64,000 nt of DNA from NCBI GenBank assembly GCA_029882215.1, contig JAOULC010000004.1, forward strand, positions 61,701-125,700, in the 5' to 3' direction. Origin of the DNA: Gammaproteobacteria bacterium (GTDB lineage Bacteria > Pseudomonadota > Gammaproteobacteria > SZUA-229). Position 1 is the stretch's first letter, and each line of letters opens with the position of its first letter. Below, one piece after another: positions 1,317-56,629 of this stretch. The position numbers were made by a program, and so were the translations under genes. Below the pieces are notes generated by a model. It ran no database searches. It worked only from the letters and a program-made list of their open reading frames with translations, and had not been told where the DNA came from.

Positions 1317-2864
1317 CTAGCCCTGCATCTGTGTTGCCAGCTGCATAATTTCCTGCCGGTGTGTTACTGGCTTAAGCGCCAATAACTGTTTCATTAAGTC
1401 TCTGGCTTTATTTGCAGCTTCAAGGTGATACCAAAGCAGTTCAATTTCAAGAAGCCTGCAATGAACAGCATCAAATTCACCGTTATAACGACTATTCGCA
1501 TTATTAATCAGGCAATATGCCAGCTCATACTTTTGTAGCTTTATGGCTGACTGAGTTAATAATATCAACTCACCCGCCTGAGCAAGTACAAAATCTTTAG
1601 AAACCAGCTGACACTTTTCAGCATAACTCACAGCTGCAGAAAAACGCTGCGTATTTAATAATAAATAAATAACCAGACGCCCCACACATAAAAATGCCCG
1701 GCTGGGTTGCCACTGACTCATACGGTCAAAAAGCTCTTCATAAATTTCCACACTTCCCTGTTTATACTCAAAATCATCAAGCAATAATACAACAGCATCA
1801 CTGTCTCTTTCGGTTTGCACATAAGTATAGAGCTTACTTAAATGTGCCTCGCATTCACGCTCCGCGTTTTTGCTCCTTATCCTGTCATCAAACTGTTGTT
1901 TACCGCCAATATAACTGGCATCGAAGGTGTTTATATTACGACTATAGCGCCTGTAATTTATTTCTTCTTTTAATTCATCTTTGATATCCTGTCGTCTTTC
2001 CTTAAACCATAGCTTACCCAGAAAGTACCCGGTTATGCCGCCACTGACATGGGCAATAAGATTTACTCCTCCATTATTGCCGTCATTCAAAAGATCCCAG
2101 CTGTCCCAGCCTATATACCATAGCGCCAGAATCCAGGCCGGTATATAAACAGTTTTCAGAAAAGTAAAAAACCAGACAAACACCCTGATTTTAGCCTCTG
2201 GCATAAGATAAGCAGCGAGCCCGATCATGCCGCTAACAACTCCCGACAGACCCAGCGTAGGAACAGGATGGGTTCCGATGCTGATCAGTGAATAAGTAAT
2301 ATGTGTGCTAAAGGCAATAAGCAGTAAAGCTTTAATAAATTTCCAGCTATTGCTGATTAAGATTTCAAGCGCCGGAGTAAAGGCAAAGAAAAACAGCAGA
2401 TTAAAAAAAATATGCCCTAAGTCACCATGCGCCAGTGACGAAGTTATCATTTTTAACGGGTTCCATGAATCAGGATAATACATGATCGACTTATTAAGGC
2501 CACTGATCAGATCTTCTGAAAAAATCAGATAATGCTTTTCAATAAACTTAACAGTCATTCCCGTTGATCCAGAGTATAAGAGATTATCGCTAATAAACTG
2601 CTGCAGGTCCCAGTCATCCCGCAGGTAAACATGGATATCAGTGAGGATTTCTACGCATTCACGGCGACCATTTAACGGGCTTTCATTTAATCCCGGACTG
2701 TTTGCTTCAGAAAGAGACTGACAATACAGAGTTGCTGCCTGTAAAATCGTGCTGTTATTTTGATATTGCAGAAAAAAAATAACACTGCAAATTATCATTA
2801 CCGCGTAGGTAACGACCGGCAGTTTATTTAGCTTGAGCTCAGTACTATAAGGAATAAAAAACAT
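1317..2864 (-). CDS. Rhomboid-family intramembrane serine protease with extra N-terminal and long C-terminal helical (TPR-like) domain
   Basis: 515-aa ORF; rhomboid catalytic signatures GLSGVVSGMIG (GxSG) and AHVSGGITGYFLG (His helix); multiple TM helices; GGAG RBS 6 nt upstream of ATG. Confidence 0.7.
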   Translation of the reverse strand: MFFIPYSTELKLNKLPVVTYAVMIICSVIFFLQYQNNSTILQAATLYCQSLSEANSPGLNESPLNGRRECVEILTDIHVYLRDDWDLQQFISDNLLYSGSTGMTVKFIEKHYLIFSEDLISGLNKSIMYYPDSWNPLKMITSSLAHGDLGHIFFNLLFFFAFTPALEILISNSWKFIKALLLIAFSTHITYSLISIGTHPVPTLGLSGVVSGMIGLAAYLMPEAKIRVFVWFFTFLKTVYIPAWILALWYIGWDSWDLLNDGNNGGVNLIAHVSGGITGYFLGKLWFKERRQDIKDELKEEINYRRYSRNINTFDASYIGGKQQFDDRIRSKNAERECEAHLSKLYTYVQTERDSDAVVLLLDDFEYKQGSVEIYEELFDRMSQWQPSRAFLCVGRLVIYLLLNTQRFSAAVSYAEKCQLVSKDFVLAQAGELILLTQSAIKLQKYELAYCLINNANSRYNGEFDAVHCRLLEIELLWYHLEAANKARDLMKQLLALKPVTHRQEIMQLATQMQG

Positions 2865-3289
2865 ATCGCTCCGTGCTATGTTTATTGTTGCTATTTATTG
2901 TTATTGTGGCTTTATCTTATTCCATATCTCCACAGTATAAAAGCCATACGGGTATTTTAAAAAGTAAGTTTTTATACATTGTCGTAGCTAATCAGAGAGC
3001 GATTATTTGAAAAGCATACAATAACCATTCAAATATGAGCAGTATAAATAAAAAAGATAACAAAAACAGAGGGAAAACTGTTCAAAAAAACTCGGATAAC
3101 AAGTACCTGAGTTATTTATCTGGCTACGAAAGAGCAAGTAGCCACTTTTAACCGCTAGTGATATATACATGCAGCCGATAATAATGGACAGACGCTGATA
3201 TTTTATTTTTTAATTAGTACTCAGGCACAATGACAAACAACTCATACATGTATTGGTTACAAAATCAGGCATCCCTGCCAGCAACATCA

Positions 3290-4126
3290 CTACCAGCCGA
3301 ACATCATATTATCGACTAATAAATTTTGTCCATCATACTCATTTTTAGAGGCAACTATGAATTTCTGTGTTTGTTTACTGAAACGATTCAGAAGGTTATG
3401 TGCCGCCTGACTGCCCTTTTCACTCAGTAAAAATTGTGTTATTTCAGCTTGTTTTTCTGCACTAATTCGCGCACTAATGGTAATCCCCTGATTAGTCAGC
3501 ACCTGACTCTTAGCAATGACTTTTAAGCTGCTTCGTGCCTGTTGTTCCATATTGTTTTTGAAAAAGCTCTCTCTGAAAACAGCGGCATCACATTTTCCTG
3601 CTTTAAATGCAGCATATACTTTATTAAAGCCGTCTTTAATGGCGATGAACTTTGGTTGCTGCACCTGATTAGGAAACATAGAATAAACAGACAATGTACC
3701 AAGGTGTGGTGATGGTAATACGCAGATTTTACGTGATATTAAATCTTCTTTTGTATTAATTATCGAGTTGTCATTTTTTGTCACCAGAACAAAAGCTAAA
3801 TCACCGGGCAATCTGACCAATGGATTTGCATCAGTCTTATTAAAACGCCATGCAACAAAGTGCGGACCATCAAATACGAAATCATATTTACCTGATTTCA
3901 AAAACTTCTTGTACATTGACCAGTTACCAGGATGCACATACTTTACCTCTGCACCCATAATCCTGCTCAGTTCTGCAGTGAGTGATCCATAAGTTTTTAT
4001 GCCGTCTTCAGCACTCTCTCTGGGTGGTGCCGTGAAGTAGTATTCTGCTGCTGCTGTATTAATGCTTAAAACAGTCAGCACTGCGCTGCAAAATAACGAT
4101 TTCAATAGTTTGTTTGATTTATTCAT
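3290..4126 (-). CDS. Periplasmic PhnD-like (phosphonate-binding-type, PBP2) substrate-binding protein, paralog A; no transporter partner genes
   Basis: 278 aa, N-terminal signal peptide ending AAAEYYF; sequence pattern matches phosphonate-bd/PhnD-like family (Y..L...L....G..V..V......F.K.G.YDFVF.GPHFV.WR, GKCDAAVF); ~60% identical to ORF 5150..5989. Confidence 0.7.
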   Translation of the reverse strand: MNKSNKLLKSLFCSAVLTVLSINTAAAEYYFTAPPRESAEDGIKTYGSLTAELSRIMGAEVKYVHPGNWSMYKKFLKSGKYDFVFDGPHFVAWRFNKTDANPLVRLPGDLAFVLVTKNDNSIINTKEDLISRKICVLPSPHLGTLSVYSMFPNQVQQPKFIAIKDGFNKVYAAFKAGKCDAAVFRESFFKNNMEQQARSSLKVIAKSQVLTNQGITISARISAEKQAEITQFLLSEKGSQAAHNLLNRFSKQTQKFIVASKNEYDGQNLLVDNMMFGW

Positions 4127-4157
4127 TTAATTTTACCGGGTGTCAGAAACAAAGCAG

Positions 4158-4185
4158 GCTCTAACTCATCCGATAAGTATGAACT
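4158..4185 (-). promoter_or_regulatory. Conserved 28-nt upstream box (identical copy at 6022..6049) ~30 nt 5' of the paralog A start, followed by ATATTACC-N4-GGTAATAT palindrome (4192..4211)
   Basis: Exact 28/28 identity GCTCTAACTCATCCGATAAGTATGAACT (plus strand) in both upstream regions although flanking non-coding DNA has diverged; adjacent 8-bp-arm perfect inverted repeat. Confidence 0.55.
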
Positions 4186-4559
4186 TACCTTATATTACCA
4201 TACGGTAATATTATAAATTACTTACATTAAATCAGGTCATCTGCTGTGTATAAAAGCTAATAGGCAAAAAACTTCAAATATCAGGCAAAACTGTCTGGTT
4301 AATTTTTAAAGCGGTTTATAACAGTGAATCAACTTATATAATCATGAAATTAAAAAATAATCTGCTTGATTAGACAATAGAGATAATAAGCATTATTTTA
4401 TACTCACGGATAGAGCATCTCATTAATATCATGGTTAAATTAATGCCATCATATATTGTAAATATTCACAACTCGGCTGTGTCATTAACGCTCTAACAAT
4501 AAAAAATGCTATAGTTTATTTTAATTTAGATACATAAAAGCAATCACTAAGGAGATTGT

Positions 4560-4982
4560 ATGGCGGCAGTAAAAGAAATGTCCTGGCTAGGTATAGGCAT
4601 CAGGTTTTTAATCGCCTGGATTATCGTTTTCTCAAGTTATAACCCCAGTGGTTACTCATTTGTCAGCTGGGTACTTAATACTGAATCCGGCAATATTGTC
4701 TTTAAAGTCTTTATTGGTGTTACGCTTATCATTGGCTGGGCCATATATATTCGCGCAACCAGACGGTCATTGGGGATGATTGGAATTGTACTGGCCTTTG
4801 CTTTCTTTGCCGCATTACTTTGGTTATTAATCGACCTGAACATAATACCTGCAAATACAGCGAGCGCAGTTACTTATATCGTACTTTTTATTATTGGCTG
4901 CTTGCTTGCAACCGGCATGTGCTGGTCTCATATTCGTCGTCGGATTAGCGGTCAACTGGATGTTGATGAGATTGAGAGTTAA
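4560..4982 (+). CDS. Small integral membrane protein (4 predicted TM helices), function unknown
   Basis: 140-aa ORF with strong AAGGAG Shine-Dalgarno 8 nt upstream; four hydrophobic segments; sits between the two PhnD-like paralogs on opposite strand. Confidence 0.65.
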   Translation: MAAVKEMSWLGIGIRFLIAWIIVFSSYNPSGYSFVSWVLNTESGNIVFKVFIGVTLIIGWAIYIRATRRSLGMIGIVLAFAFFAALLWLLIDLNIIPANTASAVTYIVLFIIGCLLATGMCWSHIRRRISGQLDVDEIES

Positions 4983-5149
4983 ACTTCAGTTTTGAATTGT
5001 GTGAGTTCAATACACCTAATTAAAATAGTGAGCTCACCTATTCTTCGTAAAGCCAAGCCCGTCGAATAAAAGCGGGCAACCTGTTGGCCGTGTTCCCGGG
5101 CTATACACAAAGCAACAACAGTGTCACTGCCAGCCGCTCTACAATTGTT

Positions 5150-5989
5150 TTACCAGCCGAAAATCATATTATCGACCAACAGGTTCTGACCATCATATTC
5201 ATTTTTACTGGTGTAAATAAACTTTTTATTTTTCTTACTAAAGCGTTTTAACAAATTATCAGCTGCTTCACTGCCTTCTTTGCTCACCAGAAACTCTGCA
5301 ATTTTTTTCTGTTTATCTGCACTAACACGCTTACTGATTGTTATGCCCTGATTAGTCATGGTCGGGCTCGTAGCGAGCACTTTTAAAGCTTCACGTGCAT
5401 TGTCGTCCATGTTGTGCTTATAAAAACTCTCTCTGAAAACAGCCGCATCGCACTTACCTGCTTTAAAGCTCGCATATACCTTTTTAAAGCCGCCACCGGC
5501 ACTGGCAACAAATTTTGGCTGCTGCACCTGATTGGGAAACATGGAATAAATAGCCAGCGTTCCCAGATGAGGTGATGGTATCACACAGATTTTACGGGAA
5601 ATTAAATCTTCTTTTGTTTTAATCATATTGTTGTCTTTGGCTGCAACCAGAACAAAAGAAATATCACCCGGAAGGCGGACCAAAGGATCAACATCGGTAT
5701 TATTAAATCGCCAGGATACAAAGTGCGGCCCATCAAAAACAAAGTCGTAGTCTCCCGATTTCACAAACTTTTTATAAGTTGGCCAGTTTTTTGGATGCAC
5801 ATACTTCACTTCTGAGCCCATTATTTGGCTTAGTTTAGCAACCAATGGGCCATAGGTTTCAAGCCCTTTTGCAGCACTTTCTCGTGGCGGTGCTGTGAAA
5901 AGGTATTCTGCTGTCGCAGAGCTGATGAATAACACTGAAATAAGTGCACTAGAAGATAGCAAATTAATGAATTTGTTAATTTTTACCAT
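5150..5989 (-). CDS. Periplasmic PhnD-like substrate-binding protein, paralog B
   Basis: 279 aa with signal peptide (ATAEYLF); colinear with and ~60% identical to 3290..4126; same family signatures. Confidence 0.7.
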   Translation of the reverse strand: MVKINKFINLLSSSALISVLFISSATAEYLFTAPPRESAAKGLETYGPLVAKLSQIMGSEVKYVHPKNWPTYKKFVKSGDYDFVFDGPHFVSWRFNNTDVDPLVRLPGDISFVLVAAKDNNMIKTKEDLISRKICVIPSPHLGTLAIYSMFPNQVQQPKFVASAGGGFKKVYASFKAGKCDAAVFRESFYKHNMDDNAREALKVLATSPTMTNQGITISKRVSADKQKKIAEFLVSKEGSEAADNLLKRFSKKNKKFIYTSKNEYDGQNLLVDNMIFGW

Positions 5990-6021
5990 AATTCTTACCG
6001 ATGAGAATAATTATAAAGACT

Positions 6022-6049
6022 GCTCTAACTCATCCGATAAGTATGAACT
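6022..6049 (-). promoter_or_regulatory. Second copy of conserved 28-nt upstream box, followed by ATATTA ... TAATAT inverted repeat (6050..6085) enclosing CTGCTTAAATTAGCAG hairpin
   Basis: Identical 28-mer to 4158..4185 at equivalent distance (~32 nt) from the paralog B start codon. Confidence 0.55.
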
Positions 6050-6360
6050 ATATTAACTACTGCTTAAATTAGCAGGCAATAATATCACCTTTAGTTAAAA
6101 AAAGAGTTCATTTGGTAGCGCATTTTCTACACTTCATCGCGTATTCGACCGAACTGTAATTAGTGAGTGACAAAATTTGATCGAACATCTTGTTTACTAT
6201 TTTAACTCTACTGGCGCCTGCTAGTGCAAGCTATAGCGGAGACCGAATAGCCTAAATATTATAAGGTTTTAATTATTAGTGCTGTTAAAAAATAGAGATG
6301 TGATAATTGATAAGCGGCTAAAAAACAAACAGGAATTATCATAATAAAACCCGGAGCATC

Positions 6361-7197
6361 TCACTTATTTTTATATTTTCTTTTTGAATTTTTTTTACTG
6401 ATCGGGGTTGTTTTAGATTTGAATACCCTTCTTGACTTGCTTTTTTTAGCTGCTGGTTTGTCGGTTGTTTTTTTGGAATTGACAAGTGATTTATCAATTT
6501 CAGCCATTTCGTCTCTGGTCAGGTTTCTCCACTCCCCTGTTTTCAGCTTACCTAAGTGTACATTCATTATTCGTACACGCTTTAGCTTTGTCACCTCATA
6601 ACCCAGATATTCACACATCCTCCGAATCTGACGGTTAAGGCCTTCTGTAAGGATTATTTTAAAGACAAAACGACTTTGAATAGTCACTTTACAGCGCTTA
6701 GTCACGGTATCCAGAACAGGCACCCCCTGAGACATGAGTTCAACAAAGCGCTCTGTTAGTGGTTTGTTAACCGTAACAATGTACTCTTTATCATGGTCAT
6801 TACCTGCACGCAGAATCTTGTTAACGATGTCACCGTCGCTGGTGAGAAAAATCAAACCCTCTGAGGGCTTATCCAGCCGGCCAACAGGAAAAATTCGTTC
6901 GCGGTGTCCGATAGCATCGATGATATTACCGGCAATATTACGCTCTGTTGTACAGGTAATACCGACAGGTTTGTTATAGGCAATATAAATACGGTCTGAT
7001 TTATTAACCGCACTGGGCTTTATGCGCTTGCCATCTGCGATGACAATATCTATATCTGAAACTTTACTGCCCAATTCTGGCAGCTTACCATTAATTGTCA
7101 CTCTCTTTTGCTCTATAAGCTTATCCGCCTCGCGACGAGAACAAAAACCAGAGTCACTAATAAATTTATTTAGACGAATGCCGCTATCTGTATTCAA
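6361..7197 (-). CDS. rluF: 23S rRNA pseudouridine synthase RluF (S4 domain + RsuA/RluB/RluF catalytic domain, Lys-rich C-tail)
   Basis: 278 aa; near-colinear match to E. coli RluF (SVRLNKYISESG.CSRREAD, PVGRLDKDSEGLIFLT, NRQIRRMCE); basic C-terminal tail. Confidence 0.9.
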   Translation of the reverse strand: MNTDSGIRLNKFISDSGFCSRREADKLIEQKRVTINGKLPELGSKVSDIDIVIADGKRIKPSAVNKSDRIYIAYNKPVGITCTTERNIAGNIIDAIGHRERIFPVGRLDKPSEGLIFLTSDGDIVNKILRAGNDHDKEYIVTVNKPLTERFVELMSQGVPVLDTVTKRCKVTIQSRFVFKIILTEGLNRQIRRMCEYLGYEVTKLKRVRIMNVHLGKLKTGEWRNLTRDEMAEIDKSLVNSKKTTDKPAAKKSKSRRVFKSKTTPISKKNSKRKYKNK

Positions 7198-7304
7198 AGT
7201 ATATTACGCACTATAAAAATACTAGGGTATCATAAAAAACGTTCGGTTTAGTACTCTATACTATTTATACAGCAGCAGAAGCCCTGACACAGAATAAAGT
7301 CTTT

Positions 7305-10178
7305 TTATATACCCAGTTTCTGACTGATGCTTGCTAATAATTCTTTTGCATTGATTGGTTTTGTAACATAATCATCAAAACCGGCCGCCAGCCCCCTGTC
7401 AATATCTTTCTGCATAGCATTTGCACTCAATGCAACGACAACAATATCGCGGGTTTCCTTATGCTGTTTTAAATGTCTAAGCACATCAAACCCGTTCATT
7501 CCGGGCAGATTAATATCAAGCAGTATCAGGTCTGGCCGGTGCTCGATTGCAAGCTCTAATCCTAAGAACGGCTCATGCGCACTCCACATATGAATAGAGG
7601 GCTGGTGTGACAATAATAATTGCACTAATCTCAAATTAGTCGGGTTATCTTCAATATAAAGGACGTTATATTTTTTTCCCGGATCAGAATCATTATCCAT
7701 CTTTGTATCTCCATTTGATAGCGGCAACATCGGATAATATTGTGCCGGTTTCGACTTAGCATGATCTTCTGATGAATCACCGGCAGGTAATATAAACCAG
7801 AAAGTACTGCCGATACCCGGCTGACTATCCACACCAATTTTACCTTGCATTAATTCAATGAGGTTTTTAGTAATAACTAGACCTATTCCGGTGCCTTCTA
7901 TTTCAGACTGTTCAGCACCTAAGCGATTAAAAGGTTTAAATAACTGTACCTGCTGTTCATTTGTTAAACCAGCACCGCTATCAATAATACTGACGCGAGT
8001 ATAATCACAATCAGTCGTATCATAAGTAATGACAATAGAACCGTTCTCACTATTATATTTGACCGCATTACTCAGGAGATTTAAAAGCACCTGCTTCACT
8101 CTGGTACGATCACCCTTGACGATACTTCGCTGACATAATAATTCACTAACCGCTATGGCCGTGTCATTACGTTTAATAAAAATTGTCAGACCATGTTTTT
8201 CAGCTAAAGGTGTAATTAATTTAAGTGCTTCTTCTATCAGCTCTTCAAGTGAGATAGGTTCGATTGATAACTCTATCCGGCCTGATTCTATTTTAGTAAG
8301 GTCAAGTATTTCATTAATCAGTGCTAAAAGATGCTCGCCGCCCTTTTGTATTTCGTTAACGTACTCAGTCTGTACAGAACTTAAATCATCGCCATTTAAT
8401 TCCAGTAACTGACTAAAACCTATAATCGCATTAAGCGGTGTACGCAGCTCATGACTCATGCTGGACAGAAACTGGGATTTGGCATGATTAGCATTTTCTG
8501 CCTCATCACGTGCATCCAGCAGTGCCTTTTTGGCTAACTCCCTGGAAGTAATGTCGCGCAAAACACCAACGTAACCTGACCGTACATCCCCCTGCATTGG
8601 TGTTACATTCAGTTCCATCGGAAAAGAACTGCCGTCTTTTCGGCATCCCTTAAGATCTCTTGTTCGATGGATAATCCGGGGTTCATTCAATGCTGAATTT
8701 TTAGTGTACTCTTCATGCTCATCTCTCTCATCCTGATGAAGCAAGATTGATACATTTTTGCCGATAACTTCTTCAGATGTATAATTAAATATCTTTTCAG
8801 CTGCCGGGTTAAAGCCATCGATAATGCCGTGATCATCGATGGTAACAATGGCATCTGCAATGGCTTTGAAAACGGTTCTCTGTTGTGCTTCACTTTGCTC
8901 AAGAGAGCGGGTTCTTTCTGCAACCTGTGCTTCTAAATTATCGTTTAGATCACGCAGGTTTTTTTGCGAACTGTCAACCTGCTGAATCATACTTTCAAAT
9001 GAGCGCGCCAGTACTCCCACTTCATCATTCAAATACAGCGGCAAACTTTCCAGTGAGCTTTTATTATGCGAGTAATCATCGACTGCTGACGTCATTTGTT
9101 TTATAGGACGGGTAACACGCACAGATACAAGTATTGCAATACCAGTGGCTATAAAAGCCAGAATAAGACCCCATATTGCCATATCGTTAAGTACAGCTGA
9201 CTGACTGGCAACAATATCACCAAAAGCCTGACTCATGGTCACCGAGATATATCGCTCGGGTCGTAAAGGATCGAACAGAATTTTTGAAAATACTATAGCG
9301 TAGTCACTTTTGCTTTCATCAGGTTTGAGTACATGGTGCATTTTTTTATTTTCTGGCAGAAACAGCTTAGCAAGACGGGGAATATCTTCCTGTATACGAT
9401 AACGTTTACCCAGATCAAAACCATAGGTTTTACTTTTATCAGGATGCAGTAAATAACCACCCTGATCGTTTGTTATATAAATATTTCGTCCGGTTTTCTC
9501 AATCTCATTATGAATCTTTTGTAACTCTTCACCAATTTCAGTAGTAATCAGAACAATTCCGGCTACAGCGCCCGTTCTGTTATCATATACTGGTGTCGAA
9601 GTCCGCATAACCTGACGGTGAGGCTGGCTAACTTTTCCATATTCGCGGTTAAGGTTTATTTCCGATAAATATACAGCACCACTTTCTAATTTCATTGCTT
9701 CAATAAAATAACGTCTTTTTTTCTTACTTTGTAATCGTTCATCACTCATTGCCGCTATTTTTTTAGTTTCAAAATTGCGCTCAACGACAATTAACTCCTG
9801 GCCATTTTTATCGATAAACCGAAGTGTAAGGTAGGATTTTTTACTATTTATTACCGTTGTAAAAATTGACTCCAGACGTAATTTCCACTGCGTAAATGTT
9901 GACTGACCTATCGCATCATAATTATTCGAACTTTTAGCCCGGATAATACCCTGAATCGGCGGTGTTTCAGATAAAATCAATACCTCTGCATACAGATCCT
10001 CAATTTTACTTTGTAGCCGGTTCCCGGTATTTTGAATCTCGGCTTCAATCGCGCTGAAGGTATTTTCTACTAATATATTAGAAATTTTAGTATAGAAAAG
10101 ACCGCCGATAACACTACTGGTCAGCAATACAACCAGCACTGTACTTAAGCTAAACTTATGAACAATCGATAACTTCAT
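7305..10178 (-). CDS. Hybrid sensor histidine kinase: TM - large periplasmic Cache-like domain - TM - HAMP - PAS - HisKA - HATPase_c - C-terminal REC
   Basis: 957 aa; H-box [15 protein letters not shown]-boxes GTGIGL, receiver with LILLDINLPGMNG; two TM segments flanking ~300-aa periplasmic region. Confidence 0.9.
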   Translation of the reverse strand: MKLSIVHKFSLSTVLVVLLTSSVIGGLFYTKISNILVENTFSAIEAEIQNTGNRLQSKIEDLYAEVLILSETPPIQGIIRAKSSNNYDAIGQSTFTQWKLRLESIFTTVINSKKSYLTLRFIDKNGQELIVVERNFETKKIAAMSDERLQSKKKRRYFIEAMKLESGAVYLSEINLNREYGKVSQPHRQVMRTSTPVYDNRTGAVAGIVLITTEIGEELQKIHNEIEKTGRNIYITNDQGGYLLHPDKSKTYGFDLGKRYRIQEDIPRLAKLFLPENKKMHHVLKPDESKSDYAIVFSKILFDPLRPERYISVTMSQAFGDIVASQSAVLNDMAIWGLILAFIATGIAILVSVRVTRPIKQMTSAVDDYSHNKSSLESLPLYLNDEVGVLARSFESMIQQVDSSQKNLRDLNDNLEAQVAERTRSLEQSEAQQRTVFKAIADAIVTIDDHGIIDGFNPAAEKIFNYTSEEVIGKNVSILLHQDERDEHEEYTKNSALNEPRIIHRTRDLKGCRKDGSSFPMELNVTPMQGDVRSGYVGVLRDITSRELAKKALLDARDEAENANHAKSQFLSSMSHELRTPLNAIIGFSQLLELNGDDLSSVQTEYVNEIQKGGEHLLALINEILDLTKIESGRIELSIEPISLEELIEEALKLITPLAEKHGLTIFIKRNDTAIAVSELLCQRSIVKGDRTRVKQVLLNLLSNAVKYNSENGSIVITYDTTDCDYTRVSIIDSGAGLTNEQQVQLFKPFNRLGAEQSEIEGTGIGLVITKNLIELMQGKIGVDSQPGIGSTFWFILPAGDSSEDHAKSKPAQYYPMLPLSNGDTKMDNDSDPGKKYNVLYIEDNPTNLRLVQLLLSHQPSIHMWSAHEPFLGLELAIEHRPDLILLDINLPGMNGFDVLRHLKQHKETRDIVVVALSANAMQKDIDRGLAAGFDDYVTKPINAKELLASISQKLGI

Positions 10179-10223: not shown

Positions 10224-11123
10224 TTATTCTGCATAAGCCTCCACTTTCAGTTTTTTCATTAGTGTATTGACAACACTATAGTTGTGCGCCGGCACCCAGC
10301 CAATGTATTTACCCGCTTTTGCAGCCAGGGTCTCAGGTTCCAGCGACAGGAGTATTTGCTGTATCTGCTGTTGCAGTTTTTGCGGAACGTTTCGCATTGC
10401 GGCAAAGCTCCACTCTGGGTACAGCTCTGTACTAAGAAAAAAAGGAAAGCTCTCTATATCTTTATTATTAAGAATACGAAAATATCTGAGATCAATTTCA
10501 CCGGTTGACTCCATATTTTCAAGCGTATCAGTTCGCACTACACCTACATCGGCTATACTATCCCTGACTGCCCGGACAACTTCCTGATGGGTTCTTGACT
10601 TACTAAACAATAATTTACGGGCGTCTTTGTACGGATCAAAATCATTTTTAAGCATCTCATACCACGCCATGCGCCAGCCACCAAATGCTGACTCTGATAC
10701 CGCCATCAGAACTTTGTCTTTAAAGTCTGATATTTTAATAATATTTTCATTACGCACATGGGTAAAGATCACCGATCCAAACTGATCCTGAGCTGTATTC
10801 GCGCGTTTATTGTTTAACGTAACCAATGCAGTTGCTCCGTATAATTGGTCTATTTCAACAAAAGATGACGGGTTAGTTAATACAAAATCAAACTCATGCT
10901 GACCTGCCAGTTTTGTTAATTCCTCCAGTTTTAATACAGGCATAAGGAAGAATCTATGCTCTGGGAATTGTGCATTCAGCACATTGACTGTTTGCTGCCA
11001 CTGTTGCTTGGCCTTTTCAATGCCATGATGTGCCCTGACAGCAATCCGGTATTCTTTAGCCAGCAAGCCCTGAGACAGAAATATGCACATCATTATCATA
11101 AGGGCTTTAATTGCTGGTCTCAT
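10224..11123 (-). CDS. Periplasmic PhnD-like substrate-binding protein, predicted co-sensor, co-transcribed upstream of hybrid kinase 7305..10178
   Basis: 299 aa with signal peptide; PhnD/phosphonate-bd family pattern (YRIAV..., SESAFGGW, DVGVVRTD); 45-nt gap to downstream kinase on same strand. Confidence 0.75.
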   Translation of the reverse strand: MRPAIKALMIMMCIFLSQGLLAKEYRIAVRAHHGIEKAKQQWQQTVNVLNAQFPEHRFFLMPVLKLEELTKLAGQHEFDFVLTNPSSFVEIDQLYGATALVTLNNKRANTAQDQFGSVIFTHVRNENIIKISDFKDKVLMAVSESAFGGWRMAWYEMLKNDFDPYKDARKLLFSKSRTHQEVVRAVRDSIADVGVVRTDTLENMESTGEIDLRYFRILNNKDIESFPFFLSTELYPEWSFAAMRNVPQKLQQQIQQILLSLEPETLAAKAGKYIGWVPAHNYSVVNTLMKKLKVEAYAE

Positions 11124-12623: not shown

Positions 12624-14447
12624 TTATTCTGTATGAAAACTATCATATATTAATTGTGCTAATGCCTTACTAATACCCGGTGTTTTAGCCAGATCTTCTA
12701 CACCCGCTTTGCTGACCGCCTGCAAGCCACCGAAGTGTTTTAGTATCGACTGACGCCTTTTAGCACCCATACCCGGTATCTGCTCCAGCTGCGATGTGGT
12801 TCTGGATTTTTGCCGCTTCGCACGGTGACCGGTGATTGCAAAGCGATGCGCTTCATCACGCACATGCAAAATTAAATTCAGAGCCATGGACTGCTGCCCG
12901 GGGTAAAGTTCCGTGCCATCGGTCATGACCAGCTTTTCAAGTCCGGCTTTTCTGCCCTCACCTTTGGCCACACCAATTAACAACACGTCTTCTATTTCCA
13001 GCTGATTCATTACTTCGATCGCCTGTGATAGCTGACCTTTACCACCGTCTATAAACAATATATCCGGTTTTTTGCCTTCGCTTTTTCGGATTTTTGCGTA
13101 ACGCCTTTTCAGTGCCTGTTTCATTGCCGCATAATCATCACCAGGCTCTATGCCTTCAATATTAAAACGACGATAATCGGTTTTTAACGGCCCTTCAGGT
13201 GTAAACACAACACAGGAAGCCACGGTGGCTTCGCCCATCGTATGGCTGATATCAAAACACTCTAATCTTGCGGGCATATGATCAAGGTGTAATAACGCCT
13301 GTAGTGCATCAAACCGTTTAATCATTCCTGCTGCGGAGTTAACCCGCGTGAGCAGCGCCTTTTGCGCATTCTGTCTGGCATTATCCAGCCAGTGCCTTCG
13401 GTCACTGCGCACCGAACTGGAAAGCATCACTTTCTTACCGCGTTTATCAGACAGCACCTCGGCAATGAGCTCATGGTCCGGCAGACTTTCACTTAGAATT
13501 ATTTCAGCCGGAATGTCGTTATTAAGATAATACTGCGGTAAAAAGGCATTTAATATATCAGCCTCCTGCATACTCTCAGGCAGCTTTGGAAAGAAACTTT
13601 TGGTACCAAGACTCTGACCATTTCTGATAAAAAATATTTCTACACAGGCGTGACCGGCATGTGTCGCACAGGCAATGACATCAATATCGCCGCCGGAGCC
13701 AGTCATGTACTGGCCTTCAATAACACTTTGTAAATAACTAATCTGATCTCTGAACTCAGCGGCTTTTTCAAACTGCAACAATGTAGCAGCCTGCTCCATC
13801 TGTGCGACCAGATCCTGAACCACTTTCTGGCTTTTACCTTCAAGAAACTGTGTGACATGTAAGATATCATTTGCATAATTATGCTGGCTAATGCTTTTAA
13901 CGCACGGTGCGGTACAGCGTTTAATTTGATATTGCAGACAGGGCCTGCTGCGATTTTTAAAATAGCTATCATCACACTGGCGAATGCGGAAGACTTTTTG
14001 TATCAGGTTCAGTGTTTCCCTGACGGCTCCGGCATTCGGATAAGGACCGAAATAGCGACCTTTTTTTCGTTTGGTGCCGCGGTGAAGCCTGAGCATCGGG
14101 TAATCGTCCTCCGTTGACAAAAACAAAAACGGATAACTTTTATCATCGCGTAAAAGAATGTTATATCGCGGCAGAAACTCTTTAATTAAATTACTTTCAA
14201 GAATTAATGCCTCACCTTCCGTATGTGTGATGGTTGTTTCAATGTTTATAATCTGTGAGACCAGCGACTGTGTTTTAGCACTTAAACCGGTATTTCTGAA
14301 ATAGCTGGACAGCCTTTTCTTGAGATCTTTCGCTTTACCAACGTATATTATCTCATTTTTTTCATTATACATCCGGTATACACCCGGCAATGAGCTGCAG
14401 TTTTTAAGATAATTTTTTGCATCGAAGGTTTGTGGTTTATCAGTCAT
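12624..14447 (-). CDS. uvrC: Excinuclease ABC subunit C (UvrC)
   Basis: 607 aa; N-terminal GIY-YIG (GVYRMY...IYVGKAKDLKKRLSSYF), UvrBC-interaction, RNaseH-like and C-terminal HhH regions; adjacent to uvrY as in enterobacteria. Confidence 0.95.
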   Translation of the reverse strand: MTDKPQTFDAKNYLKNCSSLPGVYRMYNEKNEIIYVGKAKDLKKRLSSYFRNTGLSAKTQSLVSQIINIETTITHTEGEALILESNLIKEFLPRYNILLRDDKSYPFLFLSTEDDYPMLRLHRGTKRKKGRYFGPYPNAGAVRETLNLIQKVFRIRQCDDSYFKNRSRPCLQYQIKRCTAPCVKSISQHNYANDILHVTQFLEGKSQKVVQDLVAQMEQAATLLQFEKAAEFRDQISYLQSVIEGQYMTGSGGDIDVIACATHAGHACVEIFFIRNGQSLGTKSFFPKLPESMQEADILNAFLPQYYLNNDIPAEIILSESLPDHELIAEVLSDKRGKKVMLSSSVRSDRRHWLDNARQNAQKALLTRVNSAAGMIKRFDALQALLHLDHMPARLECFDISHTMGEATVASCVVFTPEGPLKTDYRRFNIEGIEPGDDYAAMKQALKRRYAKIRKSEGKKPDILFIDGGKGQLSQAIEVMNQLEIEDVLLIGVAKGEGRKAGLEKLVMTDGTELYPGQQSMALNLILHVRDEAHRFAITGHRAKRQKSRTTSQLEQIPGMGAKRRQSILKHFGGLQAVSKAGVEDLAKTPGISKALAQLIYDSFHTE

Positions 14448-14613: not shown

Positions 14614-15279
14614 TTAGTTGTTGATATGTTCTTCAATATCATCATCCAGAATACCGTGCTGGATAGCCAGCCTCATCATTTCAACATCGTTCGTTACTCC
14701 CAGCTTCTCATGCAGTCGTTTACGGTAGGTACTGACCGTCTTCGGGCTGAGGTTTAACTTATCTGAAATAGTCGATGTACGCTGGCCCTGACTGATCATC
14801 AGCAGTACCTGCAGCTCTCGCTGCGACAAGGTGTCAATCGGCGAGTCATTGCCCGGCAGCATGGATAAGGCCAGCTGCTGTGCAATACTGGGAGCGATGT
14901 ACTTCAGTCCTTTTGAAACTTTATGTATCGCATCCACCATCTCCTGTACTTCGCAGCCCTTGGTTAAATAACCAACAGCACCGGCTTCAAGTAATCGTTT
15001 AGGCAATGGCCCGTCACTATGGACAGTAATGATAATGATTTTAGTATTGGGGCAGATAGTCTGTAAACGATGAGTGGCTTCAAAGCCACCGATTCCGGGC
15101 ATGTTGATATCCATCAGGATGACATCAGGGGGATCTATCCGGCATTTTTCCAGACACTCTTCACCACTGCTAACATCAGAAACGACCTCGATACCCAGCT
15201 GATTTTGCAATAAGCTTTTGATGCCAAATCTAACCAGATCATGATCATCTACCAACATAACACGAATAGCCATCAACAC
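14614..15279 (-). CDS. uvrY: Response regulator UvrY/GacA (REC + LuxR-type HTH)
   Basis: 221 aa; MLVDDHDLVRFG receiver start, D54 region ILMDINMPG, C-terminal LuxR HTH; conserved uvrY-uvrC synteny. Confidence 0.9.
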   Translation of the reverse strand: MLMAIRVMLVDDHDLVRFGIKSLLQNQLGIEVVSDVSSGEECLEKCRIDPPDVILMDINMPGIGGFEATHRLQTICPNTKIIIITVHSDGPLPKRLLEAGAVGYLTKGCEVQEMVDAIHKVSKGLKYIAPSIAQQLALSMLPGNDSPIDTLSQRELQVLLMISQGQRTSTISDKLNLSPKTVSTYRKRLHEKLGVTNDVEMMRLAIQHGILDDDIEEHINN

Positions 15280-32286: not shown

Positions 32287-33303
32287 TTAATCCTGTAACA
32301 ATAGTTCTTCTGAAAATCCCTGACTTTCAAGGATTTTACGCATACGTTTTAAAGCATCCATCTGAATCTGGCGCACACGTTCACGTGTCACACCCAGTTC
32401 TTTACCGACGTTTTCAAGGGTTTGTCGTTCAAAACCACCAAGGCCAAAACGACGCACAATGACTTCCCGCTGTTTAACATCTAATTGATCAAGCCACATC
32501 GCTAAATTTGCAAAAACATCTTCATCCTGCAACAACAACGATGGCTCAGGATTGTTATCGTCTGCAATAACTTCTAATAACGGCCGGTCATTTTCTTTAC
32601 CAACAGGAATATCCACAGAACCAACCCGGTCACGCAGCCCCAGCATCTTTTCAACAACGGCCGCAGGCTTATCACAATGTGCCGCAATTTCATCAATGCT
32701 TGGCTCGTGATCTAAGGACTGCTGTAAATGACGCGAAGCACGCAAATAGACATTCATTTCTTTAATAACATGAATAGGCAAACGAATAGTACGGGTTTGA
32801 TTCATTAATGCCCGTTCGATTGTCTGTCGAATCCACCATGTAGCATAAGTCGAAAAGCGAAAGCCTCTTTCAGGATCAAATTTTTCAACAGCGCGTATCA
32901 AACCCAAATTGCCTTCTTCAATAAGATCTAGTAAAGCAAGACCGCGATTCATATAACGCCGGGAAATTTTAACCACCAAACGTAAGTTACACTCAATCAT
33001 TTTAGCTCTGGAAATTTTATCGCCCTTAAGTGCTTTACGCGAGTAATGGACTTCCTCTTCGGCAGTTAGTAAAGGTGATCGTTCGATTTCCTTGAGGTAT
33101 ATTCTGGTTGCATCGAGTTCAGCTCGAGACTCTGTGACTTTAACAGCATCTTTTTTGATATCTTCAACTTTTTCATCATCATCGTCTTGAACCATGATCA
33201 TGTCGAGAGGAAGAGTGACATCATCCAATGCTGGTGTCACAAGAACAGTATCGTCCTGTTCAATATCTAACTTTTTAGCAGCAACTGTCATATTCATATC
33301 CAT
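32287..33303 (-). CDS. rpoS: RNA polymerase sigma factor RpoS (sigma-38)
   Basis: 338 aa; near-identical regions 2-4 to E. coli RpoS ([42 protein letters not shown]); downstream of nlpD. Confidence 0.95.
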
Positions 33304-33454: not shown

Positions 33455-34348
33455 TTAGGGTAAATATAACAAGGGATTAACGGGTTTACCGTCTTTTCGG
33501 ATCTCGAAGTGTAAAAGGTTTGTTACATTTGCGTTTTTCCCGATAATTGCTATCGTTTGGTCCTTATTTACGCGCGTTCCTTCTTTTACAAGCAGCTTTT
33601 TATTATAAGCATAGGCGCTTAAGAAAAGTTCATTATGCTTGATGATGATCAGTTTTCCATAACTGATGAGTCCGGATCCACTGTAGACAACCACGCCACT
33701 ATTTGCGGCACGAACTTGCTCACCCGGTCTTCCTTTAATATCAATTCCCTTACGGTCATGATTATTGCTGGCAAAGGTACTGACAACCTTTCCTTTGACA
33801 GGCCAGGACCATTTTGCAGTATCACTCGATGATTTATTTTTTTTATAGCTCTCTTTGTTAGCAGTTTGTGAAATAACAGAAGTATTAGATTTTTTTTGGT
33901 TATATATCGGTACAGATTTAACAGTTCTAGTGGTCTGTTTGCTCGCCGGTACTGGCTGTGATTTATCAAGCGGTGGTGGCGGAATTGTTAATGCCTGAGA
34001 ATAATCCAGACTGTGGACTGGTTGTTCTTCTTGTGTTTGCTCTGGTTCAGATAAAAGAGCTTGGCTATTACCACCAAATAAATATTCTTTGTCCTCTGGT
34101 TCAATAACAGGCTGCCTCATCATCAGCCGCTGGCCGGGTGAAATCAGATAAGGGTCAGTAATCTTATTCCATTTAGCAATATCCCTGAAATCCAGCTCAT
34201 ATCGCCAGGCGATTGAATATAAAGTATCACCGTTTTGTACCGTATATTTCGAAGCATCCCAGGATGAACCACTATCCGGAAACCTCACCGGGTTACAAGC
34301 GGTCAGAAAAAAACTTAAGAGCAGATATATGAGAAAGTGTTCTTTCAT
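33455..34348 (-). CDS. nlpD: Lipoprotein NlpD (LysM + M23 peptidase domain)
   Basis: 297 aa; lipobox LTAC, LysM (YTVQNGDTLYSIAWRY), C-terminal M23 fold; conserved pcm-nlpD-rpoS context. Confidence 0.9.
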   Translation of the reverse strand: MKEHFLIYLLLSFFLTACNPVRFPDSGSSWDASKYTVQNGDTLYSIAWRYELDFRDIAKWNKITDPYLISPGQRLMMRQPVIEPEDKEYLFGGNSQALLSEPEQTQEEQPVHSLDYSQALTIPPPPLDKSQPVPASKQTTRTVKSVPIYNQKKSNTSVISQTANKESYKKNKSSSDTAKWSWPVKGKVVSTFASNNHDRKGIDIKGRPGEQVRAANSGVVVYSGSGLISYGKLIIIKHNELFLSAYAYNKKLLVKEGTRVNKDQTIAIIGKNANVTNLLHFEIRKDGKPVNPLLYLP

Positions 34349-39977: not shown

Positions 39978-40940
39978 ATGAGCAGCAAGCATTGTGATTC
40001 TTCGGTGAGACTCAACCTAAGCATGACTTTTTCGATTTTATTTTTTCTTATGGTTCTTGTGTCTATAACGGCATGTGATCAATCCTCGCAGTCGCAGTCC
40101 TCACAAACTCCTCAGTATGGTGACAGTTCGACTCTGGATAGCAAACCTGTCTATCGTTTCGCCATTCACCCACTGCATAATCCTCGTAAGTTAACAGAGG
40201 TCTATCAACCGCTCATTAACCAGCTTAACGCGAAAATTCCCAGCGTGCACTTCCAGGTTGAAGCATCTCGTGATTACCAGGCTTATGAAATGAAATTTCG
40301 CGCCCGTGAAGCGGAATTTTTATTACCTAACCCGTGGCAAACGCTTGAGGCCATAAAAGTAGGCTATTCCGTCATTGCCATGGCCGGTAACGCCGAAGAT
40401 TTTAAAGGCATTTTCGTTGTACGCAATGATAGTGGTATCAAAGTACCGACTGACCTAAAAGGTAAAAAGGTGAGTTGTCCTTCTCCCACCGCACTGGCAG
40501 CCTGTATTATGCCACATCAATATTTACACAATCATGGCGTGAACGTGCAAGCCGATATCGAAAAGTTGTATGTTGGTTCTCAGGAGTCATCCATAATGAA
40601 TACTGCTTTGGGCAGTGTTGCCGCTGGTGCAACCTGGCCACCTCCATGGCGTGCCTTTCAAAAAGACCACCCGGAAGATGCCGCCAAGCTTAAGGTGATA
40701 TGGGAAACACCGCATCTGCTCAATAACTCGGTAATGGTGCGTAAAGATGTACCTGCAAATATACGCGATCAGGTTAAACAGATACTCCACGATTTACATA
40801 AAACCCCTGCAGGTCAGGAGCTTCTAAACGGAATGGAAACAGCACGTTTTCATCCGGCGGATGACGGAACCTATGACAAGGTTCGTCAGTTCGTTGCACG
40901 TTTTGAAAAAGAAGTTCGACCAGTAGAGGTTAAAAAATAA
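39978..40940 (+). CDS. PhnD-like periplasmic lipoprotein (substrate-binding, predicted ligand-sensing partner of downstream kinase)
   Basis: 320 aa; lipobox ITAC; strong PhnD-family pattern (YRFAIHP, SCPSPTALAACIMP, LKVIWETP); stop overlaps kinase start (ATAATGG). Confidence 0.8.
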   Translation: MSSKHCDSSVRLNLSMTFSILFFLMVLVSITACDQSSQSQSSQTPQYGDSSTLDSKPVYRFAIHPLHNPRKLTEVYQPLINQLNAKIPSVHFQVEASRDYQAYEMKFRAREAEFLLPNPWQTLEAIKVGYSVIAMAGNAEDFKGIFVVRNDSGIKVPTDLKGKKVSCPSPTALAACIMPHQYLHNHGVNVQADIEKLYVGSQESSIMNTALGSVAAGATWPPPWRAFQKDHPEDAAKLKVIWETPHLLNNSVMVRKDVPANIRDQVKQILHDLHKTPAGQELLNGMETARFHPADDGTYDKVRQFVARFEKEVRPVEVKK

Positions 40941-43900
40941 TGGGAAAAGCGTTAACGTATTTTTTTTCTGGAAACCTGCGTCGTCGATTGTTGTTTAGTG
41001 TAGCCGCAATACACGCTGTGATGATGAGTGTTTTTATCTGGGATCTGACAGAGCGCCAGCAGGATATGATCCTCAGCCAGCAGACCCGGTTAGCGACGGC
41101 CCTGGCGCAAAGTGTTGCAACTTCTACCGCTATTTGGTTGCAGGCACGCGACGTTGCCGGACTACAGGAAATTATAGAATCCCAAAAACGATATCCAGAA
41201 TTGAGTTTTGGTATGGTCGTTACGGCTGATGGCGAAATTCTCGCGCATACGGATCAATCACTTCGAGGTCGTTACTTAACTGACCTGCCTGCAAGGCCAG
41301 AGCAACATCTCTTTCGTCAGGATGAGAGCCTGGTCGATGTCGCTACGCCTGCACTGGTTGCAGGACAACATGTCGGATGGGTGCGCATTGGTGTCGGCAA
41401 AGGCGTCACCCATAGCGAATTAGCCGCGCTCACGCGTGACGGCGTGTTCTATACCTTGTTTGCGATACTGGTTGGTTCGTTACTGGCCGCTTTACTGGCC
41501 CGACAAATGACACGTCGACTCAATATTATTCAGTCGACAGCAGACGCTGTGCAGGCCGGGGAGTCAGGGAGGCGCGCGAATGTAGCCGGTGATGACGAGG
41601 CAGCTATTCTTGCTCGCCAATTTAATCGCATGCTGGATACGCTGGAAGAACGCGAGCAAGAGCTGGAACAACATCGAAGCCATCTTGAGGAAACAGTCGC
41701 TGAACGTACCACAGACCTGGCAAGTAAAAATAAACTGTTCGAATCCATCAGTAGGATGCAGGCACAATTTATTCGTGAGCAGGACCCGCAGGAATTGTTC
41801 AGTTGCATCGTACAGGAGTTTGCCGCACTGACTGATAGTGAAATGGGCTTTGTCGGTGATATTCATCGCCACGAGGATGGATATAACTACCTGAAAGATT
41901 ATTCCTTCTTTAACGTACCTCAGGATGAAGCGTCGCAGCATTTTTATGAAAAACACAAAGCCACCGGCTTTATGTTCCGGCAGGATCAGCACCCCAACTT
42001 GTTTAACCAGGTCATTACGGATCGCACAGTGATTATTGCCAATGCGCCGGCGCGCGGCTCACACTCTACCGGTCTTCCTGATGGTCATCCGCCGTTACAA
42101 AATTTCCTTGGTATCCCCGTCTTTTATGGCGAACGCCTTGTGGGTGAGATCGGCCTGGCCAATCGAACAGGTGGCTACAACCGGGCTGTGGTTGATATGC
42201 TCAAACCGGTAATTGATGCCTGTGGTCGTATCATCGTCGCTCGTTGGGATCAATCGGCACGTGAGGAAGCTGAAGCGGCAGCCATCGAAGCACAGAAAAC
42301 GGCCGAGTCGGCAAATGAAGCGAAGAGCATGTTCCTGGCGAATATGAGCCATGAATTACGTACCCCACTTAATGCCATTCTTGGCATGTTGTATTTAGCG
42401 CTACGCAATGATTTGCCGGATGCGCTACGTAACCAGTTAAGTAAGGCGCGGTCATCTGCACACTCCTTATTAAGTATCATCAATGACATTCTTGATCTCT
42501 CCAAGATTGAAGCTGGCAAGCTTGAGATCGAAAAAATCGAGTTTGGTCTTGATGGTGTGTTGGAGCGCGTGACGGATATTGTCGCGGGGCAGGCGGCGGA
42601 CAAAAATATCGAGTTCCTGATTCGCTATGATAACGAGATACCGTGCACCCTGGTTGGTGACCCACTTCGACTGGGGCAGGTGTTAATCAATCTTTGTGGT
42701 AATGCGGTAAAGTTCACCGAAGTAGGCCAGGTAGAATTATCCTTTCATGCAGATGAAGTTACCGATACTACGCTCACCGCACGCATTTGTGTCATGGATA
42801 GTGGTCTTGGAATGTCCACTGATTTACAAGCACAGCTATTTGAAAAATTTGTTCAGGCAGATCAAAGTAGTACTCGTCGCTTCGGTGGCACCGGACTCGG
42901 ACTGGCAATTTCCAGGATGCTGGTGGAGATGATGGGCGGTCGTATCTGGGTTGAACATTCTGAACCCGGATCGGGAACCACGTTCTGTCTGTCCCTGCCG
43001 CTGGGTATTGCCTCTCAAGCACGGCGGAGTCATCGTGAAGATGTAGTAAAACGAGTCGGACACATGCTCAAGGGTAAGCGTGTACTGGTGGTGGACGATA
43101 ATGAAGTGTCGCTCGAAATATTAGCGGAAATGATGCGTGATTTTCAGTTTGAAGTTGATGTTGAGCCTAGCGGCGCAGCAGCACTGGCTAGAGTAGAAAT
43201 CGCTGGAGATGGTTATTATGATGTGGTGTTGACCGACTGGTCCATGCCGGGTATGAATGGCGATGAGGTCGTTCGCAAACTGCGCCGAAATGCAACGATG
43301 ACCTCGCTTCCCAAATTCATTATCGTTACCGCTTACGGGCGCGAAGACGTGCTCGAGGATGCTGAACGAGCTGGTGCGGACGGTTTTCTGGTTAAGCCCG
43401 TTTCACCTTCGGCACTGCTCGATACGACACTTGAGGTGTTGGGTCGTGAACGATTATGGGACACCACGTCAGAACCTGTTAGTTTACGAAAAACCAGTAA
43501 AGGATATAACTTTTCAGGGATGCGTTTACTGCTAGTAGAAGATAATGAAATCAACCGCGAGTTTGCAGGCATATTGTTACGCAGCGAGGATATTGAAGTC
43601 GATGAGGCAATCAATGGCCTTGAAGCCATCAGCCGTGTACAGGAAAAGACATATGATGGTGTACTGATGGACGTGCAGATGCCGGTAATGGATGGTTTAG
43701 AAGCGACACGCCAGATTCGTGCACTGGCTAACAACCCCGGACAAGAATACTTTGCCAGTTTACCTATTATCGCCATGACAGCACTCGCCATGGAGAAAGA
43801 TATCGAGAGAACCCGTGATGCAGGAATGAATGATCATGTCACTAAGCCTGTTGAGCCAGAGCAGTTAATGGCGACTCTTGCCAAATGGGTTAAACACAAA

Positions 43901-44545
43901 GAACAGAAAAGAAGTATTTCACAGACTTTTGAGCCACCAGAGGATATGAAAGCGCTAATTAATCTCGATGTAAAAGGTGGTATTCATCGCATTGGCGGTA
44001 ATGCTAATGCCTATCGGAAACAATTGAAACGCTTCAGCAAAAACTATGCTGATTGCACCACGGAATTGCAACGTTTTATTGATAAAGAAGGCACGCAGCA
44101 GGCCGAGGGTTACTGCCATGCACTTAAAGGTGTTACCGGTAATATTGGGGCAAAAAAGCTTCATGAAAAAGTAACAGAGCTTGATGATTTACTCAAACAG
44201 AATCAGATTCCAGAGAAGACAGCCTTAAATGAAATGGAGGTTTTACTACAAGCTGTACTCAGTGATATTGAAAGTTTATTAGAAACCTCAGATACCTCAA
44301 TGTCAGTCGACTGTGAGCCTCTGAAGGCGATAGAATTACATAACCTTCTGCAGAAATTACTAAATGCTCTGGAAACCGATCTGGGAGCTGTCGAAACATT
44401 AGTTATTAAGCTTCAGCACGGCCTGACTGACAGCGACCAAAAGGCCGCAATAGAAGCAATAGCGCGTCAGATTGACTGCTTTGACACAGATACCGCTATT
44501 GATTTAATTAACCAATTTCAGTCTGAATTAAACATTACAAATTAA
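40940..44545 (+). CDS. Hybrid sensor histidine kinase: TM - small periplasmic domain - TM - HAMP - GAF - HisKA - HATPase_c - REC - REC - Hpt
   Basis: 1201 aa; [16 protein letters not shown]-box; [18 protein letters not shown]; two receiver domains ([13 protein letters not shown]; [12 protein letters not shown]); C-terminal Hpt ([12 protein letters not shown]). Confidence 0.9.
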
Positions 44546-56625: not shown

Positions 56626-56629
56626 ATGA

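Follow-up and report, generated by a model that had tools for sequence, protein, structure and literature searches.

Leaders that sequester the ribosome-binding site (RBS) and are opened by a trans-acting factor include the rpoS leader with DsrA, RprA and ArcZ ('anti-antisense') and the CsrA-activated leaders. The paralogues of the cspA family share a 'cold box' and an 'upstream box' in their 5′-untranslated regions (5′-UTRs). Hairpins of the CsrA/RsmA type present a GGA in a short hairpin loop, and CsrA-repressed genes normally have a second GGA at the Shine-Dalgarno (SD) sequence. Here we examine a 28-nt element, the box GCTCTAACTCATCCGATAAGTATGAACT, which lies upstream of two paralogous genes for substrate-binding proteins (SBPs), SBP_A and SBP_B, on contig JAOULC010000004.1 of an uncultured gammaproteobacterium known solely from a metagenome-assembled genome; the whole 64-kb stretch of DNA that was analysed is called the window, and all coordinates are counted along its plus strand. 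Judged by sequence comparison, the box is a real and strongly selected element that is confined to one lineage, and it is very likely a shared cis-regulatory element. The reading that we favour, tentatively and at somewhat short of an even chance, is that the box acts in cis as an RNA element within the 5′-UTR of the two minus-strand SBP mRNAs.

The box and its conservation

Both SBP genes are encoded on the minus strand. SBP_A (3290-4126) encodes a PhnD-like periplasmic substrate-binding protein of 278 aa (PF12974, E = 3e-27), and SBP_B (5150-5989) encodes a PhnD-like PF12974 paralogue of 279 aa with 70% protein identity to SBP_A. An exact match search found the 28-mer exactly twice in the window, at 4158-4185 (copy A) and at 6022-6049 (copy B), separated from the start codons of SBP_A and SBP_B by 31 nt and 32 nt, respectively, confirming the claim of the initial annotation that the two copies are identical at 28/28 positions and close to both paralogue starts. 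Allowing up to 3 mismatches produced no third match in the window (chance expectation 0; none in 100 shuffles). When the two SBP loci were aligned globally, the box was the longest exact run, and the next longest, of 17 nt, lay within the coding sequences; the non-coding flanks of copies A and B are essentially unalignable, and the coding DNA of the paralogues is ~70-77% identical. Read on the minus strand, both copies have the sequence AGTTCATACTTATCGGATGAGTTAGAGC. Between the box and the start codon, the rest of leader A (4127-4157, minus strand) contains CTTT (AAAG on the plus strand, 4151-4154) and an SD-like CCGGTAA (4133-4139 on the plus strand), while the rest of leader B (5990-6021, minus strand) contains CTTT (6015-6018) and an SD-like TCGGTAA (5995-6001). 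At -3.0 kcal/mol, the SBP genes have SD sequences of ordinary strength for the window, which is uninformative.

Among 5.8 billion proteins, the only closer homologues of the SBPs were P0002 (79%) and P0003 (74%), both from the Logan assembly SRR25639990, whose contigs have the same gene order as the window (SBP_B-like, DUF6524, box, SBP_A-like, rhomboid). The neighbouring rluF gene led to the flank upstream of the B-orthologue, the orthologous copy of box B lying at the 3′ end of contig L024, and four copies were therefore available for comparison, two paralogues in each of two species. The 27 nt GTTCATACTTATCGGATGAGTTAGAGC (minus strand; 4158-4184 in copy A, the same in its orthologue) are invariant in all four, and position 28 is occupied by A in three of them and by G in the other. 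The distance from the box to the ATG is 30-32 nt in every copy, and the flank upstream takes insertions of 6-27 nt. The intergenic DNA around the box is ~55-70% identical and is saturated with substitutions and indels; between box and start codon, CTTT and CGGTA are kept in 4/4 leaders, the AAAG of the plus strand being the sole conserved island that separates the box from the SD-like motif. In L005, a variant of the same species, a single-nucleotide polymorphism lies 3 nt outside the box and none lies inside it. The earlier proposal that the box is conserved more strongly than the coding sequences thus holds, with 27 nt frozen in four copies and proteins that are only 70-79% identical. A shared co-regulatory role, which had likewise been proposed, is also supported: the box is common to both paralogues and to a second species, and hence a cis-regulatory role is the natural reading.

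The box was absent upstream of the ~60%-identical SBP homologues (L003, L006, L007, L021, L022 and L023) and at 11 GTDB loci, the best matches at both having at least 11/28 mismatches. One candidate relative, TTATCGGAT in L011, looked like a chance match and was rejected. Exact scans with the central 21-mer gave 0 matches in GTDB species genomes and 0 in JGI metagenomes, and a 26-mer gave 0 in IMG/VR, so that the regulon which the initial annotation had hoped to define by such searches could not be delimited. In the SRR25639990 assembly, three contigs begin or end inside the box (L001 1-30; L002 1-30 and 1990-2020; L024 5253-5282), as expected for a repeat of at least k-1 bases: both copies there share at least 30 nt (box plus AAAC), and an element of this length suffices to break up short-read assemblies at these genes.

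A candidate RNA element in the SBP leaders

Extended -10 motifs of the form TGnTAnnAT were found upstream of all four copies, where they are kept within each orthologous pair amid diverged sequence; the background of this motif in the window is 7.8e-4 per position (100 per 128,000 positions). The predicted extended -10 of SBP_A is TGGTAATAT at 4192-4200 (minus strand), with a start predicted near 4185, and the orthologue keeps TGTTAATAT. That of SBP_B is TGATATTAT at 6079-6087 (minus strand), with a start predicted near 6072, and the orthologue keeps TGGTATGAT within the block AGGTGnTATnATTGC. By these motifs, the box would lie in an untranslated leader: the predicted starts precede the 27-nt core by 1, 24, 22 and 16 nt, giving predicted leaders of 59-83 nt that each contain the box. 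The four copies have 6, 22, 27 and 29 nt separating the predicted -10 hexamer from the box. Because the distance to the start codon is fixed and the distance to the promoter is variable, an RNA function is preferred over a promoter-proximal operator; the initial annotation had offered a shared operator or a 5′-UTR RNA element as alternatives, and it is the second that fits better, the varying promoter distance speaking against the first.

An ATATTA/TAATAT inverted repeat had also been described directly after each box. In copy A the repeat (ATATTACC-ATAC-GGTAATAT, 4192-4211) has one arm that is part of the predicted extended -10 of SBP_A, and in copy B the arms (ATATTA at 6050-6055 and TAATAT at 6080-6085) enclose CTGCT/AGCAG at 6060-6075. 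The coordinates of both repeats were correct, except that the repeat of copy A begins 6 nt past the box and not immediately after it. Neither repeat is a conserved element, however: the orthologue of copy A has the perfect 8-bp palindrome only in degenerate form, with an unrelated hairpin inserted there, and 9 nt of the CTGCT/AGCAG hairpin of copy B are missing in its orthologue. The part that recurs is the TAATAT hexamer, which abuts box B (6050-6055, minus strand) and lies 0, 1, 6 or 27 nt from the box across the four copies; in copy A and its orthologue it belongs to the extended -10.

Two further blocks are kept upstream. The block CGATGAAGTGTAGAnAATnnGCTAC (minus-strand reading of 6115-6139), shared by the copy-B upstream region and its orthologue, precedes the predicted extended -10 of SBP_B by ~50-25 nt and is possibly an activator site or a promoter-upstream element of this gene. 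The block GATTTAA-GTAAGTAAnTT (4218-4236; GATTTAATGTAAGTAATTT on the minus strand) is shared by the copy-A upstream region and its orthologue; its TGTAAG resembles half of a GacA/UvrY-type box, of which the second half-site is poor, and a GacA-like gene is present in the window.

Folding of the minus-strand transcript, which the initial annotation had suggested as a check, gave a predicted structure that spans the invariant 27 nt: on the mRNA strand these form exactly one hairpin, GUUC..ACUUAU-CGG-AUGAGU..GAGC, with the structure.((((..((((((...))))))..)))). The predicted energy of this hairpin is -5.8 kcal/mol on the minus strand vs -1.5 kcal/mol on the plus strand, which folds worse because two of the hairpin pairs are G·U and can form solely on the mRNA strand. 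Through its 5′ half, the box is in addition complementary to the translation-initiation region, CUUAUCGG with the SD-like CCGGUAAG and UUCAU with AUGAA, and RNAalifold retained the UUAUCGG-CCGGUAA pairing in all four sequences. The complementarity of the box to the SD and start region exceeds chance, with a mean duplex energy of -11.8 kcal/mol compared to -6.9 +/- 1.7 kcal/mol for shuffled boxes (p = 0.012); against random 28-mers of the window, p = 0.025. Minimum-energy folds of the whole leader sequester the initiation region clearly in three of the four leaders and partly in the fourth, and in all four the sequestering fold is predicted to be 4.5-6.3 kcal/mol more stable than a fold in which the box hairpin is enforced.

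In the leader model that we favour, each SBP gene would be transcribed from its own extended -10 sigma-70 promoter, located 6-29 nt upstream of the box, and a leader of ~59-83 nt would accordingly have the box close to its 5′ end. The 27 nt would either fold on themselves or pair through their 5′ half with the translation-initiation region. The fold that sequesters the ribosome site is the predicted ground state, so that the leader would be off by default and, we infer, translation of both paralogues held low; release would come from a trans-acting factor, either a base-pairing small RNA or an RNA-binding protein that recognises the sequence, once this factor captures the box or makes its self-hairpin more stable. 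We propose that every base is frozen because self-pairing, pairing with the ribosome site and recognition by the factor overlap on the same bases, and the complete invariance of the box points to a sequence-specific partner.

Several points weigh against this leader model. The transcription starts of the SBP genes are predicted ones, the carriers of the box number only two species, and the statistics of folding are modest (p = 0.07 for the self-hairpin; z-scores of -1.5 to -2.6 for the whole leaders). As the box never varies, the four copies contain 0 compensatory pairs and offer no covariation to weigh; purely structural RNA elements usually covary instead of freezing, and extra constraints must be postulated here. 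No trans-acting partner emerged from the window, which has no other match of at least 10 nt to the box or to its reverse complement. Rfam 15 gave no relevant match at E <= 10 across 2800-7400 and none at the gathering score in the whole window. Finally, the plus strand of the box carries a fairly specific match to a sigma-28 promoter, which the leader model has to treat as coincidental or secondary.

If the leader model is true, the box would be a compact RNA control element of ~27 nt, present in no RNA database, that co-regulates two orphan PhnD-like binding proteins; it would offer a handle on when these proteins are made, in a lineage that pairs other members of the family with hybrid sensor kinases. 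With its 59-83 nt, the leader would be a switch that is small and easy to test, and its biological reach would be narrow, given the two species that carry it. The box-less ~60%-identical homologues share another conserved leader, AATRGGYTGWGGCRTTA...GCTAAGCCTTWTTT (L003 5930-5975; L006 3915-3965; L023 ~310-350), in which a hairpin is followed by a U-run ~35 nt before the start codon, with a terminator- or attenuator-like look. The SBP family may generally be under leader-based control that uses different devices.

Other explanations for the box

The main rival, a reading absent from the initial annotation and in our view rather unlikely, is that the box is the core of a plus-strand promoter of the sigma-28 (FliA) type that fires away from the SBP genes, with a -35 TAAAGnnn just outside the box, an N11 spacer, a -10 TCCGATAA and a start at the last box bases. 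Binding or transcription by E-sigma-28 would disturb SBP expression or yield a non-coding RNA, tying the SBP genes inversely to the motility programme. In copy A, CAAAGCAG-N11-TCCGATAA occupies 4150-4176 (-10 at 4169-4176) and would start near 4184 toward higher coordinates, aiming at the DUF6524 gene 376 nt away; in copy B, TAAAGACT-GCTCTAACTCA-TCCGATAA occupies 6014-6040 (-10 at 6033-6040) and would start near 6048 in the same direction, into non-coding DNA antisense to rluF. Both transcripts would run through the SBP promoters. Compared to the FliA consensus TAAAGTTT-N11-GCCGATAA (PMC2859248; PMC12784957), the spacer length is exact, the -10 matches at 7/8 positions, and the -35 matches at 7/8 in the A-orthologue, at 6/8 in both B and the B-orthologue and at 4/8 in A. 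A position weight matrix (PWM) was built from 50 E. coli FliA sites defined by chromatin immunoprecipitation (PMC4183435). With this matrix, B scored 13.6 bits, the A-orthologue 13.5, the B-orthologue 12.3 and A 5.6, compared to a median of 14.6 for the real sites, placing three copies at the 22nd-40th percentile of real E. coli sites (B at the 40th). Copy B is the 11th best of 128,000 window positions, and ~1.8 matches of at least 13.6 bits are expected per random 64 kb; the -10 and -35 parts have per-position chance probabilities of 0.002 and 0.006, respectively. It also favours a promoter that the conserved AAAG island between box and SD-like motif belongs to the -35, that the conserved block, spanning -26 to about +2, is promoter-sized, and that antisense or intragenic FliA sites without a driven gene are common in E. 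coli (PMC4183435).

The conservation, however, is inverted for a promoter, with an invariant spacer and start region and a variable -35; sigma-28 spacers are reported as not conserved (PMC12784957), which counts against this reading as well. Copy A is weak at just 5.6 bits and has C at position 1 of the -35, a base that cut the activity of the aer promoter about tenfold (PMC2859248), and the first -10 base is T, where 43/50 E. coli sites have G. Ten window positions score above copy B, and none of the ten is conserved. The best E. coli-type sigma-28 match of the window, GCAAGATTGATACATTTTTGCCGATAAC (8741-8768, plus strand; 20 bits, perfect -10), lies inside and antisense to a hybrid kinase gene. 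No plus-strand gene lies downstream of copy B, and the DUF6524 gene (4560-4982) has its own extended -10, TGCTATAGT at 4507-4515 (plus strand), ~50 nt 5′ of its start codon and kept in the related species. A terminator-like site after copy A (4280-4299) was not found in the orthologue. Its hairpin ATCAGGCAAAACTGTCTGGT with a T-rich tail (4280-4307, plus strand), ~100 nt past the putative start at box A, would delimit an RNA of ~120 nt; it was not found in the orthologous L002 region. Flagellar or fliA genes were not found among the window open reading frames (ORFs) scanned, and the significance of the sigma-28 match is only ~5e-3 after allowing for the roughly ten motif families tried.

A sigma-28 promoter and an RNA element may also coexist. 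One form of this, which we consider improbable, is a bifunctional 27-mer, in which the mRNA-strand hairpin would gate SBP translation and the sigma-28 promoter of the opposite strand would compete or collide with the SBP promoters 6-30 bp away. Every base would then be frozen because both strands use the same bases, and SBP synthesis would be wired inversely to the motility programme at two levels.

We also give little credence to the box being a DNA operator that co-regulates both genes through a dimeric transcription factor on the imperfect dyad ACTTAT-CGG-ATGAGT, a repressor or activator binding at or just downstream of the transcription start. Such a dyad is present, its location is at the predicted starts or shortly beyond them, each of the two species has the site in front of both paralogues, and other conserved upstream blocks, e.g., CGATGAAGTGTAGA at 6126-6139, make protein-binding sites plausible in these regions. 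The half-sites, however, agree at just 8/12 positions over the full block, and the two T/C disagreements are precisely the ones that turn into G·U pairs in RNA; no two copies have the same distance to the predicted -10, and three of them put the site at ~+16 to +50. Neither the dyad symmetry nor the fixed promoter position of an operator was thus found. Operators of such age normally tolerate some substitutions, which counts against this reading for a box frozen at 27/27, and no regulator gene adjoins copy A or copy B.

It is very improbable that the box has no regulatory role and is a gene-conversion leftover, a generic repeat or mobile-element end, a solitary repeat like those of CRISPR (clustered regularly interspaced short palindromic repeats) or part of a small ORF: short tracts can become homogenised between paralogues, the related organism's short-read contigs end at the box as contigs do at repeats, 28 nt is a typical CRISPR repeat length and a plus-strand ORF encoding ALTHPISMN spans both copies, but gene conversion cannot account for identity between species with saturated intergenic DNA, the box is found not at the many unrelated positions by which the initial annotation would have recognised a generic repeat but as two copies in 64 kb at the same site relative to the paralogues, with no partial copies of at least 10 nt and 0 matches in the genome, metagenome and viral collections, and there is no repeat array and no match to a CRISPR direct repeat or other Rfam family.

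Several specific identities were tried and rejected. A dispersed repeat (repetitive extragenic palindrome, miniature inverted-repeat transposable element or CRISPR array) does not agree with two copies only, without tandem spacing or partial copies, and a Type I-F CRISPR repeat shares just the GTTCA start and the central stem, with no array. ALTHPISMN as a small ORF or leader peptide fails because, in the A-orthologue, a TAA closes the plus-strand frame three codons ahead of the box and is followed by no start codon; the invariant third positions also argue against coding constraint. Compared by eye with consensus sequences, a Pho box matches at 8/18 positions, a sigma-54 -24/-12 promoter matches in just the GG and GC dinucleotides, a sigma-E or extracytoplasmic-function promoter would have its elements in the wrong order, and for integration host factor (IHF), DnaA, NtcA and GacA/RcsB-type boxes no match was convincing. 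A -10 of the sigma-70 type lying downstream of the box is not conserved among the four copies. A CsrA/RsmA target was also rejected, the single GGA lying in the box and the SD-like region being CCGGUAA in all copies.

Gene context and comparison with known systems

The window contains four PF12974 PhnD-like SBP genes in total, and the two beyond SBP_A and SBP_B adjoin genes for large hybrid histidine kinases. One (10224-11123) stands beside a kinase at 7305-10178, both on the minus strand, and the other (39978-40940) beside kinases at 40940-44545 and 44554-47406, all on the plus strand. The arrangement of SBP, kinase and rluF genes is kept in the related species (L024). No permease or ATPase genes of an ABC transporter were found among the window ORFs scanned; since the SBPs adjoin hybrid kinases and such transporter genes are absent from these ORFs, the PF12974 family is suggested to serve here as a sensor partner and not as a transport component. 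A search of solved structures with the SBP gave a closest match that was merely marginal. Elsewhere in the window, a gene for a GacA/UvrY-type response regulator (14614-15279, minus strand) adjoins uvrC (12624-14447, minus strand), an RpoS-like sigma factor gene and an nlpD-like LysM/M23 gene adjoin each other (32287-33303 and 33455-34348, both minus strand), and a large glycogen/sucrose-phosphate-synthase cluster occupies 48112-63674.

Among the described systems, CsrA/RsmA sites resemble the box in that AUCGGAUGA would put a GGA atop a hairpin of 5-6 bp, and a GacA/UvrY-like gene is present in the window, as noted above; unlike these sites, the loop is CGG/UCGGA and not ANGGA, and the SD-like site lacks a second GGA. 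FliA promoters are matched in the -10 (7/8), in the exact 11-nt spacer and in a TAAAG-like -35, with three copies inside the score range of validated E. coli sites. In contrast to FliA promoters, the box has an invariant spacer and start region, a variable -35, a poor copy A and a -10 that starts with T and not G; as a FliA site it would be 'non-canonical', without an obvious gene that it serves (cf. PMC4183435, PMC2859248, PMC12784957).

The likeness to the cspA boxes lies in a short invariant block within the leaders of paralogues, the rest of the leader having diverged, which implies common control after initiation; the sequence, gene family and organism are unrelated, and the encoded SBP is periplasmic, with no sign of autoregulation. 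Compared to the rpoS leader, the box element is much shorter, shows no covariation and matches no Rfam family. Like the rpoS leader and the CsrA-activated leaders, however, the SBP leaders have an upstream segment complementary to the SD and start region and an alternative local hairpin, they are predicted to be off by default, and the distance from the box to the start codon is fixed, as it is in RBS-sequestering leaders. Overall, we infer that the box is a new and lineage-restricted case of a known kind of element, the RBS-sequestering leader or translational operator.

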